Origin: Pseudomonadota bacterium
GTDB taxonomy: Bacteria; Pseudomonadota; Gammaproteobacteria; Burkholderiales; Burkholderiaceae
Length of the DNA: 64,000 nt
Assembly: GCA_040387715.1 (NCBI GenBank)
Contig: JAZKDF010000001.1
Span: forward strand, 326,420-390,419
Reading direction: 5' to 3'
Part shown: positions 34,020 to 50,395 of the stretch, piece by piece
Layout of the letters: each line of letters starts with the position of its first letter
How positions within the stretch are numbered: position 1 is the first letter of the stretch
Translations under genes and position numbers: made by a program
Notes under the pieces: model-generated
What the model saw: only the letters and a program-made list of their open reading frames with translations
Database searches by the model: none
What the model was told of the DNA's origin: nothing

Positions 34020-34385
34020 ATGAACACGTCTCTAGCAAGTGATATGACTTTTGAGGTAATAGTAGGAAATAAAAAGCTGGTTTCATCAGGTTTGGTACAT
34101 CTTGATGAGCCAAGGTTTGAAATATCAATTCACGGACTAGTTATTGAGATTGTATTTATAAGCGAAAGAGATTCGGCCCCAAAATACGTAGGAAATGTTG
34201 TGGATGGAAGATTAAGGATGGAGCTAATCAATCACAACAATAGTTTGGGTGAAGGTGTTTTTACGCCAATTGAAATAGGGAAAATAAACGATAAAAGTCT
34301 CTATATGACTTATTATGTTTTTGTACCCAGCGCCTCAGAAAATAAACGTTCATTCGAATTCGCCTTTTATTTGGGGGATGCGTAA
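34020..34385 (+). CDS. Small beta-rich hypothetical protein (DUF6864-like)
   Basis: 121 aa with NHNNSLGEG..P..IG..N.K.LY pattern. Family assignment is from memory. Confidence 0.55.
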   Translation: MNTSLASDMTFEVIVGNKKLVSSGLVHLDEPRFEISIHGLVIEIVFISERDSAPKYVGNVVDGRLRMELINHNNSLGEGVFTPIEIGKINDKSLYMTYYVFVPSASENKRSFEFAFYLGDA

Positions 34386-34690
34386 TGTCAGATAAATTGA
34401 TTGCATCAAAATCTACAATAACTACAAAGCAAATACGTGGAAACGCAACCGAGGGTGAAATTAGTAAAAAAATTGGAACCGGGGAGAATGCTCGTAATTC
34501 AATTGTGTGGATAACCATTCGTTGGAGTTTAATTGCTGGAGGTCTGATTACACTTGCCTTATATCTCCGATCTTTTTCTTGCGAAGTTGCTGGGTATGGT
34601 AATTTTGTCGAAGATATAAAAACGGTATGGGCTATATTTTTGCCGCTAATTACCCTTGCTCTTGGTTATACCTTCGGAAAAGGGCGTTAG
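34385..34690 (+). CDS. Small two-TM hypothetical protein, translationally coupled to the preceding gene
   Basis: TAATG overlap and two hydrophobic helices. Confidence 0.6.
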   Translation: MSDKLIASKSTITTKQIRGNATEGEISKKIGTGENARNSIVWITIRWSLIAGGLITLALYLRSFSCEVAGYGNFVEDIKTVWAIFLPLITLALGYTFGKGR

Positions 34691-34841
34691 GTGTCGCGTT
34701 TCGAGATGCTTAGTCTCATTCAGCGTCCACCATCCCCACTCGAAAAGTTCACAAAATTCCGCATTGTTCCTGGCAGTCACTACATTTCGCCAGCCTATAA
34801 AGACAAAACCCCCACTATTGCTAGTGAGGGTTTCTTGATAC

Positions 34842-34886
34842 TGGTGGGTCGGGCGAGATTCGAACTCGCGACCAACGGATTAAAAG
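34842..34886 (-). repeat. att-like copy 7; distal attachment site of the IME
   Basis: 45/45 identity to 50320-50364, followed by IHF-like and arm-type motifs. Confidence 0.95.
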
Positions 34887-35067
34887 ACGCACAGTAACTT
34901 TTATTAAGCCAATAAAAACAATGACTTGTAATGCTTGCTCACCTTGATTATCAGTGTCACACAATCGCAATTTATCTATAAATATGAATAATTTGGCACA
35001 AATTAGGCACACTTTCTTGGGCATCCTTTTCCAGGGGGTGATGAGTTAATTAACAGTCTGATTCCCC

Positions 35068-35096
35068 TTGTTTTATCCTTCAATAAGTACTATTAT
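35068..35096 (+). promoter_or_regulatory. Sigma70-type promoter upstream of the NYN leader
   Basis: TTGTTT-17 bp-TATTAT. Confidence 0.6.
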
Positions 35097-35102
35097 TCAT
35101 GC

Positions 35103-35163
35103 ACTACTACCCTGATGGTTTCGACTGTCAGGTGCAGGGCCTCTTCGGAGGCCCTTGCTTTTT
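35103..35163 (+). ncRNA. Candidate ~60-nt structured leader/small RNA ending in an intrinsic terminator
   Basis: A 9-bp hairpin with a UUCG loop (35111-35132), then a GC-rich cUUCGg hairpin (35134-35158) and TTTTT. Expression is not shown. Confidence 0.5.
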
Positions 35164-35178
35164 CTGGAAGAGGTTTTT

Positions 35179-35817
35179 GTGGCTAAGTCAAAACTACGAA
35201 CCATTGTCTATATTGATGGCTTCAATTTTTACTATGGACAACTTAAAGATGGCCCTTATAAGTGGCTAGATTTAACAAAACTATTTAAAGCCGTACTGGG
35301 CGAAGAAAACCATCTCGTCCGGATTAAGTATTTCACAGCAAGAGTACAGCCCACTGACCGTGATCCGCAGGTCAACATTAGGCAGGATACTTACTTTAGA
35401 GCACTAAATACCCATTGCCCTGAAGTTGAAATACATTTTGGACATTTTTTGCGGCACAAGGTTTTTGCTGAAAATGCTAACCCCCCTCCAAACAAGCTTC
35501 AAATATTTAAAACCGAAGAAAAGGGTTCGGATGTAAATTTAGCTTTGCATGTACTCAACGACGCATGGGCAGATGCCTATGATTGCGCTGTCATTGTTTC
35601 TAATGATTCTGATTTGGCCACCGCCCTTAAGCTGGTCAAAGAGCAGCATAAAAAGGTTTTAGGGTTAATCACGCCTGGGGCGCCCAAAAGAAATACTTCT
35701 TGGCAGCTTCGTCAATACGCTAGCTTTGTGAAGATTATTAGACCTTGGGCTTTAGAGCGGAGCCTATTGCCTAACCCAATCCCTGGTACGGAAATTACAA
35801 GGCCTAAAAGCTGGTAA
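35179..35817 (+). CDS. NYN (LabA/DUF88, PIN-like) ribonuclease
   Basis: YIDGFNFYYG, EEKGSDVNLA and IVSNDSDL acidic catalytic motifs. GTG start after a GAAGAGG RBS. Confidence 0.9.
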   Translation: MAKSKLRTIVYIDGFNFYYGQLKDGPYKWLDLTKLFKAVLGEENHLVRIKYFTARVQPTDRDPQVNIRQDTYFRALNTHCPEVEIHFGHFLRHKVFAENANPPPNKLQIFKTEEKGSDVNLALHVLNDAWADAYDCAVIVSNDSDLATALKLVKEQHKKVLGLITPGAPKRNTSWQLRQYASFVKIIRPWALERSLLPNPIPGTEITRPKSW

Positions 35818-50319: not shown

Positions 50320-50395
50320 TGGTGGGTCGGGCGAGATTCGAACTCGCGACCAACGGATTAAAAGTCCGCTGCTCTACCGACTGAGCTACCGACCC
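50320..50395 (-). tRNA. tRNA-Lys (anticodon UUU), with encoded CCA
   Basis: GGGTCGGTAGCTCAGTCGGTAGAGCAGCGGACTTTTAATCCGTTGGTCGCGAGTTCGAATCTCGCCCGACCCACCA, a 76-nt cloverleaf. Confidence 0.98.

Follow-up and report, generated by a model that had tools for sequence, protein, structure and literature searches.

The window analysed here, a stretch of 64,000 nucleotides from a Pseudomonadota bacterium of the Burkholderiaceae (GenBank assembly GCA_040387715.1, contig JAZKDF010000001.1, positions 326,420 to 390,419 of the forward strand), encodes a predicted small RNA of ~60 nt (35103..35163, + strand) and, directly downstream on the same strand, a gene for an NYN-domain ribonuclease of 212 residues (35179..35817). 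Our comparative analysis indicates that this RNA and NYN are very probably specific partners. The RNA is found next to 75 of 75 intact NYN homologs with readable flanks, in more than ten phyla, and a pairing that dispenses with a protein antitoxin is well supported. The best explanation of the comparative data, and in our judgement a modestly probable one, is a self-contained two-gene module resembling type III toxin–antitoxin (TA) systems, in which the RNA would serve as antitoxin to an NYN toxin and copies of the RNA carried by phages would serve as decoys.

A covarying RNA with its own promoter and terminator

All features of the window locus lie on the + strand. Direct reading gives a −35-like hexamer, TTGTTT (35068..35073), and, after a 17-nt spacer, a −10 hexamer, TATTAT (35091..35096); only three of the six −35 bases match the consensus, which is why a consensus promoter scan did not return this promoter. 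The predicted transcript begins with ACTACTAC at 35103, a 5' end placed from the promoter, and ends in a U-tract. Hairpin 1 (35111..35132) consists of a 9-bp stem with a UUCG loop, CCTGATGGT-TTCG-ACTGTCAGG, and is seen in the single-sequence fold. Hairpin 2 (35134..35158), GCAGGGCCTC-TTCG-GAGGCCCTTGC, is GC-rich, with a cUUCGg loop and a bulged U near its base. Together with the five U residues that follow (T5 in the DNA, 35159..35163), hairpin 2 forms an intrinsic terminator (35134..35163) that is at the same time a conserved part of the RNA. A terminator scan called it with an 8-bp core stem (six G-C pairs), a 4-nt loop and then TGCTTTTTCT, the combination of GC-rich stem-loop and U-tract by which intrinsic terminators are defined, and both hairpins are present in the minimum-free-energy and centroid structures from RNAfold. 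Downstream, a Shine-Dalgarno-like GGAAGAGG (35166..35173), likewise read directly, lies 5 nt before the GTG start codon of NYN. This start is backed by the conserved 212-residue length and the aligned N-termini of homologs; a TTG at 35155 was rejected as the start codon because it falls inside the terminator stem and the homolog N-termini align to the GTG at 35179. The U-tract and the start codon are separated by 15 nt, so that NYN in the window would be transcribed only by read-through of the terminator.

The comparison comprised 80 genomic loci with NYN homologs of 43–79% identity from Proteobacteria, Bacteroidota/Ignavibacteria, Chloroflexi, Planctomycetes, Gemmatimonadota, Actinobacteria, Spirochaetes and other groups. 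The 130 nt upstream of each NYN show a near-constant layout of A-C-n-n-CCC, hairpin 1, one linker base, a GC-clamped hairpin 2 and UGCUUUUU. A covariance model, R1, was built on the RNAalifold structure from a MAFFT alignment of 30 instances and searched against the window and the 80 loci (625 kb, both strands). It returned 76 matches, in the window and in 75 of the 80 homolog loci, with E values from 1e-6 to 8e-30 and one match per locus; beyond these, nothing in the 625 kb scored better than E = 0.1. The window contains one RNA unit, the single R1 match at 35102-35163 (77.2 bits, E = 4e-28). The five loci that lack a match carry an N-terminally truncated, frameshifted or internally deleted NYN, or lie at contig edges.

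Compensatory changes were found at 15 of the 17 predicted pairs in the MAFFT-only alignment and, in the model-fitted alignment, changes on both sides at 19 of 20. In the latter, which favours the structure by construction, 93.2% of cells are paired compared with 74.3% in shuffled alignments (none of 500 shuffles reached the observed value), and the covariation score is 0.559 versus 0.22 for shuffles and at most 0.18 for slid partners. Both the MAFFT-only result and the slide control speak for a real covariation signal. All nine pairs of hairpin 1 vary on both sides (78 distinct sequences), and in hairpin 2 compensatory changes occur in 10 of 11 pairs, with 98.6% of cells paired. G-U pairs number 127 and A-C pairs 15, which identifies the annotated strand as the transcribed one. 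The loop of hairpin 1 is closed by a covarying pair, U-A in 32 sequences and C-G in 22, and is therefore a plain UUCG tetraloop; on this ground we rejected the idea that hairpin 1 mimics a tRNA T-arm or anticodon arm. The single-stranded conserved parts of the RNA are short and invariant, the U-tract is kept in NYN-linked tandem copies, and sequence conservation of the motif is highest in the host modules themselves. Rfam 15 held no family for 35102-35163 (gathering scores over the whole window; E ≤ 1 over 30–40 kb); a snoR12 match at 35032-35114 (E = 0.11) was below threshold and taken as chance.

An ordinary terminator that happened to have a hairpin in front of it would account for the fact that the window RNA, folded as a single sequence, gains only modestly over shuffles (z = −2.28). 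Against such an accident stand the 76 matches at an equivalent position in more than ten phyla, with covarying stems, by which chance is already refuted; we regard its probability as negligible.

When 75 loci were anchored on hairpin 1, sigma-70 −35 and −10 boxes appeared at a fixed distance. An A/T-rich −10 signal lies 14–20 nt upstream of hairpin 1, the A at position −5 is conserved in 92% of loci, and many homolog loci have a clear TTGACA-type −35 at the same distance as that of the window. The fixed boxes and the conserved A place the transcript start a few bases upstream of hairpin 1.

A sequence-only reading of this stretch had proposed a TTGTTT-17-TATTAT promoter, a ~60-nt two-hairpin RNA with a terminator, occurring as a single unit, and a ribosome-binding site followed by an NYN nuclease with intact acidic residues. 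The promoter, read at 35068-35096, is now backed by position-specific conservation across loci; the RNA is borne out by the terminator scan, RNAfold and its one R1 match in the window, and the nuclease by GGAAGAGG, a Pfam match and six invariant acidic residues (see below). That reading had also called for a search for a covarying two-hairpin motif among homologs, and would have been undercut had the first hairpin varied freely; both hairpins are conserved and covary across phyla.

Orientation of the RNA gene and copies without NYN

In most loci, including the window, the RNA lies upstream of NYN and in tandem with it, and the end of the U-tract is only 0–26 nt from the NYN start in most loci, too short a distance to accommodate a second promoter. 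NYN must then be controlled by read-through at these loci, and this favours a cis-acting leader or attenuator, in which hairpin 1 and the terminator would merely set NYN expression, possibly through feedback by NYN on its own mRNA, and the RNA would have no function in trans. However, in seven of seven loci from Actinobacteria (L064, L076, L082, L083 and L091-L093), among them the Mycobacterium prophage prophiGD43A-1 and a Paenarthrobacter plasmid, the RNA gene is downstream of NYN on the opposite strand and convergent with it, with its 3' end at or within ~20 nt of the NYN stop codon, and at locus L114 it is divergent from NYN. The RNA is there outside the NYN mRNA, and with these convergent and divergent genes an attenuator that acts in cis alone is excluded. 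The motif yielded no covarying alternative (antiterminator) fold, and NYN-free copies with their own promoter and terminator, as well as phage copies, likewise speak against a role confined to the leader. The simple attenuator, which the sequence-only reading had set against its own proposal, is thus contradicted, and we consider control in cis alone improbable. The variable orientation combined with strict linkage indicates that the RNA is a trans-acting partner of NYN.

We detected no conserved protein partner among the nearest open reading frames (ORFs) of the 80 loci, where 66 upstream ORFs matched 103 Pfam families and 70 downstream ORFs matched 121. The commonest upstream family, phage integrase, accounts for only 4 of the 66 ORFs, many neighbour families are housekeeping ones, and the genes next to NYN are mostly unrelated from locus to locus. 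Nor was a conserved protein partner found near RNAs that lack NYN (orphans). The module is carried by integrative mobilisable elements (IMEs), prophages and plasmids, including plasmids of only 3.5–5.7 kb.

An RNA-first search of viral and metagenome contigs, in which a seed pattern for hairpin 1 and the junction was followed by model confirmation, recovered many such orphans. In viral contigs the hairpin-1 pattern gave 19 model-confirmed loci, 2 of them with NYN, and two extra hairpin-2 patterns added only two more confirmed orphans; 19 of 21 model-confirmed viral contigs (~90%) therefore lack NYN. The 49 confirmed metagenome instances comprise 26 beside NYN (three frameshifted and one truncated to residues 6-52), 2 beside short NYN remnants, 15 that are NYN-free despite room for the gene and 6 that could not be judged, so about a third of the judgeable instances are NYN-free. 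Orphans are enriched in viral contigs, with 16 distinct orphans versus 2 copies with NYN, compared with 15 versus 28 in metagenomes (Fisher p = 1.6e-4).

The orphan-bearing viral contigs encode portal, scaffold, head-tail adaptor, tail-fibre and endolysin proteins and, judged by this gene content, the orphans sit in real phage genomes. One of them (L162, 2330-2386, − strand) follows directly after a Ulx-like anti-restriction gene (phrog_1629), 100 nt before the portal gene, in a region that may be an anti-defence locus. Three orphans adjoin integrases; an origin as attP remnants, considered for the copies beside integrases in L173 and L176, fails for copies in contigs with T7-like structural genes. 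A BLAST search of the 62-nt motif against cultured phage genomes returned generic terminator-like hairpins only. The structure of the orphans is kept: 91.5% of cells are paired, 12 pairs show compensatory changes and none of 500 shuffles reached the observed value. The U-tract is lost in about half of the orphans, and hairpin 2 with its YUGC flank is retained. That hairpin 2 persists despite loss of the U-tract marks it as functional RNA and not merely a terminator.

The motif occurs within transcription units of unrelated phages. This would suit a motif native to phages and mobile elements that NYN cleaves as its target, the host copy being bait or an autoregulatory site, and eukaryotic NYN/PIN-like RNases such as Regnase-1 do recognise stem-loops. 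A cleavage target would, however, be counter-selected in phages, and the motif's non-homologous positions in unrelated phages instead resemble those of an acquired accessory element; moreover, the copy that follows the anti-restriction gene and the peak of sequence conservation in the host modules both speak against a phage target, which we judge to be very improbable.

Chromosomal-looking orphans adjoin unrelated genes (HipA, CreD, FKBP and GNAT). Three free-standing RNAs of 75–80 bits retain the U-tract and are NYN-free for several kb (L270 7361-7422, L221 3341-3402 and L257 10622-10683); their neighbours are HipA, CreD and a ParB-methylase. Candidate readings of these copies are an anti-addiction copy, a remnant or an NYN-independent function.

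Loss of the two partners is asymmetric. In four viral loci selected by their NYN (L143, L147, L148 and L153), NYN remnants lie beside an intact RNA. Conversely, an intact NYN without the RNA was never seen, and NYN occurs without RNA only where NYN itself is broken. The RNA often outlives NYN or travels without it, and never the reverse, which is the pattern expected of a toxin and its antidote and is unexpected for a leader sequence or for the cofactor of a harmless enzyme.

The NYN family, its variant RNAs and the island

NYN of the window matches the Pfam NYN family PF01936 over residues 7-183 with 51.1 bits (cut-off 24.2; E = 2.7e-13), and matches the PADLOC HEC-09 model PDLC04163 over model positions 3-202 of 203 (E = 1.8e-43). 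An AlphaFold2 model (predicted local distance difference test, pLDDT, 89.8) gave as top Foldseek matches the LabA-like NYN protein 2QIP and the MARF1 NYN domain, each with probability 1.00; on this model, the protein has an NYN/PIN-like fold. A PDB sequence search with the family profile gave no match, and structural relatives were found by fold comparison only. Six acidic residues are invariant in 24 homologs: D13 (DGFN), E113, E114, D118 (GSDVN), D143 and D145 (SNDSD). A beta-hairpin insert (GHFLRH...NPPP) at residues ~89-115 (35443-35523) is kept in all 24 aligned homologs, is modelled with lower confidence and is a candidate RNA-binding element; the family also has a conserved C-terminal tail. 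The closest solved folds are the LabA-like and MARF1 NYN proteins (PDB 2QIP, 5YAA and 6FDL; Foldseek E from 1e-9 to 1e-5), with which the window protein shares the conserved acidic residues of a predicted metal-dependent RNase active site. Identity to them is, however, only 12–16%, and the insert and tail set the window family apart. We know of no dedicated RNA partner of the LabA-like or MARF1 NYN proteins. Counterparts of the conserved acidic residues in MARF1 are D358, D426 and D452, following the mapping given in the HEC-09 passages of a preprint (bioRxiv 10.1101/2024.01.29.577857).

The family numbers at least 7978 proteins at E ≤ 1e-5; among representatives clustered at 50% identity, 362 match NYN at E ≤ 1e-30 and 2804 at E ≤ 1e-10. 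Several members are labelled '6-hydroxy-3-succinoylpyridine 3-monooxygenase HspA/nicB' in public records (protein hit P0068; plasmid hits H19, H22-H24, H26, H73 and H76), almost certainly a propagated misannotation.

NYN clades at 27–40% identity are preceded by variant RNAs of the same layout, namely a short 5' tail, hairpin 1, a short linker, a terminator hairpin and the gene. Among viral loci (L108-L116, L121-L125 and L146/L151; NYN 27–38% identical), the 150 nt upstream of NYN hold at least three further sequence variants. NYNs 30–40% identical to that of the window are carried by enterobacterial plasmids of very small size and by many plasmids of Klebsiella (207 PLSDB records). Examples of their RNAs are found in a 3461-bp Escherichia coli plasmid (L081; NZ_CP091696.1, E. 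coli/Serratia; 280-413), in a 5359-bp Klebsiella pneumoniae ColRNAI plasmid (L302; ~620-712) and in a large Klebsiella IncF/IncR plasmid (L303; ~1080-1209). These plasmid RNAs, which R1 does not detect, begin with 5'-ACUAC or ACAAC and continue with a hairpin and a terminator before NYN. With the variants judged by eye and by single-sequence folding only, RNA type provisionally appears to track NYN clade, as cognate recognition would predict.

Within a tRNA-Lys IME, the RNA–NYN pair is the final cargo at the distal end. The island (~34.84-50.40 kb, ~15.5 kb) is bracketed by an intact tRNA-Lys(UUU) gene (50320..50395, − strand) and a 49-nt direct-repeat copy of the 3' half of that gene (34839..34887, same strand), which aligns with the intact tRNA and forms the distal att end. 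It encodes an integrase, a TrwC relaxase, a type IV coupling protein (T4CP), a type I restriction-modification (RM) operon, an adhesin-E-like gene and a BamE-like gene. The module is flanked by the att repeat upstream and, 222 nt downstream, by the BamE-like lipoprotein gene, so that two further early proposals, a location at the distal end of an IME and the absence of an adjacent protein antitoxin gene, proved right. At the island boundary, a weak Rfam tmRNA match (34842-34925) corresponds to the tRNA-Lys fragment, and a 13-bp terminator-like hairpin with a T-run (34805-34834, − strand) lies immediately downstream of the displaced 3' fragment of tRNA-Lys and is probably the original tRNA-Lys terminator. 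Just beyond the boundary, 34020-34690 (+ strand) encodes a DUF6864 protein and an overlapping predicted membrane protein of 101 residues.

Proposed mechanism and relation to known systems

In the module that we favour, the RNA would be made from its own sigma-70 promoter and end at the intrinsic terminator and, at tandem loci, NYN would be expressed from terminator read-through only, leaving the RNA in excess over the protein. The RNA would bind NYN and keep it inactive, either as a type III-like antitoxin or as a protein-sequestering RNA, with probable contacts at conserved bases at the foot of the two helices (A-C-n-n-CCC, GGG-Y-GC-RGG and YUGC). If the RNA supply failed or the RNA were displaced, for which element loss, phage-induced transcription shut-off and RNA decay are possible triggers, free NYN would cleave RNA and arrest the cell. 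The outcome would be post-segregational stabilisation of the island, plasmid or prophage, abortive infection, or both, and a phage with the RNA alone would carry a decoy that keeps NYN silenced, comparable to pseudo-ToxI acting against ToxIN. That the RNA acts as an inhibitor within a TA or abortive-infection type of module has, on the comparative evidence, an even prospect or one slightly better than even. A broader proposal, to which we would give somewhat less than an even chance, is that these loci form a widespread RNA–protein class of TA or abortive-infection systems, with a ~60-nt RNA that neutralises NYN, clade-specific variants including those of enterobacterial plasmids, and phage decoys.

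The arrangement recalls the type III TA systems ToxIN/AbiQ, CptIN and TenpIN, in which one promoter, a non-coding RNA, a Rho-independent terminator and an endoribonuclease gene follow one another and no protein antitoxin is encoded. Further likenesses are carriage on plasmids, prophages and islands, the link to phage defence and the phage-borne RNA mimics known for ToxIN. This gene order is found in the window and most loci; in contrast, the Actinobacteria loci and L114, where the RNA gene is convergent with or divergent from the nuclease gene, depart from it. Only three type III families are recognised in a review, with one shared toxin fold and repeat-array antitoxins. NYN has a PIN-like fold rather than that of ToxN, CptN and TenpN, and its RNA is a single two-hairpin unit instead of a toxin-processed tandem array forming pseudoknots. 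Tandem duplicated units before NYN occur only in L035 (3865-3983) and L086 (2858-2987); the first copy in each duplication lacks a full U-tract, and these duplications are the sole likeness to ToxI-type repeat arrays. The module is type III-like in layout, and plausibly in logic, and stands outside the three known families.

PIN-like metallonucleases are also the toxins of VapBC and other PIN-domain type II TA systems, mobile and self-contained modules in which a protein antitoxin is encoded upstream. The present module shares the PIN-like nuclease and the mobile, self-contained format, whereas its upstream element is a covarying non-coding RNA with no conserved ORF. CsrB/CsrC and 6S RNA are structured small RNAs that bind a protein, as is proposed here; they are, however, chromosomal global regulators genetically unlinked to that protein, whereas this RNA and NYN are linked in a mobile two-gene cassette.

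The closest precedent for the NYN-free phage copies is pseudo-ToxI of phage PhiTE, a toxin-free phage copy of a host-system RNA that suppresses ToxIN abortive infection (PMC3475682). Pseudo-ToxI was found in laboratory escape mutants, whereas the present copies, known from sequence alone, are natural and occur in many unrelated phage contigs.

The NYN protein itself belongs to a catalogued family. HEC-09 (PDLC04163) is described in the relevant passages of the preprint as a single-protein defence candidate embedded in Hma, with a MARF1-like NYN fold and conserved aspartates (Payne et al., bioRxiv 10.1101/2024.01.29.577857). The window protein is of this family by its full-length model match; it differs in lying outside any Hma system, between the att repeat and lipoprotein genes at the IME end, 1.9 kb upstream of hsdM of the type I RM operon. 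The passages of that preprint on HEC-09 and NYN do not mention an RNA component, and our full-text literature searches found no paper that ties an NYN protein to an RNA antitoxin or RNA motif. The earlier supposition that no NYN system of this type had been characterised thus stands for the RNA, which is undescribed as far as our searches show, and falls for the protein, already catalogued as HEC-09 in the part of the preprint that treats it.

Several observations weigh against the antitoxin–toxin reading. The window sequence turned up in DNA metagenomes only and yielded no usable small-RNA evidence; for the Mycobacterium prophage locus, one lysogen transcriptome offered contigs only, with no strand or depth information, and four 2026 RNA-seq runs lacked the prophage, and freshwater metatranscriptome contigs covered only part of the L058 NYN coding sequence. 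The orphan counts rest on one hairpin-1 seed pattern, and contigs predicted to be viral may contain host DNA. Known type III toxins excise their antitoxin from tandem repeats and share a ToxN-type fold, whereas here a single unit with its own ends accompanies an unrelated fold. TA logic, as set out in a review, expects a labile antitoxin, and two GC-rich, UUCG-capped hairpins look very stable. The conservation of NYN (mean column identity of 77% across classes; 65–70% identity between proteobacterial classes) is unusually high for a toxin or defence gene. Finally, in the one published test of HEC-09, as reported in the HEC-09 passages of the preprint, a clone that contained the native upstream region, and hence probably the RNA, did not protect against the E. 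coli phages used (bioRxiv 10.1101/2024.01.29.577857).

The main rival makes the RNA a required cofactor, an activator or a specific substrate of NYN (a ribonucleoprotein enzyme, or an RNA matured by NYN), or a sponge resembling CsrB or 6S RNA that adjusts a regulator which is itself non-toxic. Any stable RNA–protein partnership would account equally well for the near-obligate co-occurrence, the trans layout and the clade-specific variants; a standing ribonucleoprotein accords better than a labile antitoxin with how stable the RNA is predicted to be and with the strong purifying selection on NYN, and the HEC-09 clone, at least as the preprint's account of it goes, showed no defence phenotype. 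However, the short, invariant single-stranded parts leave no variable guide segment. After loss of NYN, orphans of a cofactor should decay, yet structure-preserving orphans are common, especially in NYN-free phages, and decaying loci show a broken NYN beside a persisting RNA, never the reverse. On balance we consider a cofactor or sponge unlikely.

If the antitoxin–toxin reading is correct, the module would add to type III TA systems a family, spread over more than ten phyla, whose NYN/PIN-like toxin is unrelated and whose RNA is non-repetitive, and would provide a new RNA family for Rfam. It would also explain a defence candidate, HEC-09, that has no phenotype and, as described in the preprint's treatment of it, no RNA component, and it would point to natural phage-encoded RNA decoys directed against a host nuclease. 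The annotation of hundreds of plasmids, including those of Klebsiella, would be affected, since the gene is there entered only as 'NYN domain' or, in error, as HspA monooxygenase. Should the RNA prove to be a cofactor and not an antitoxin, a dedicated small-RNA partner of a bacterial NYN nuclease would still be new.

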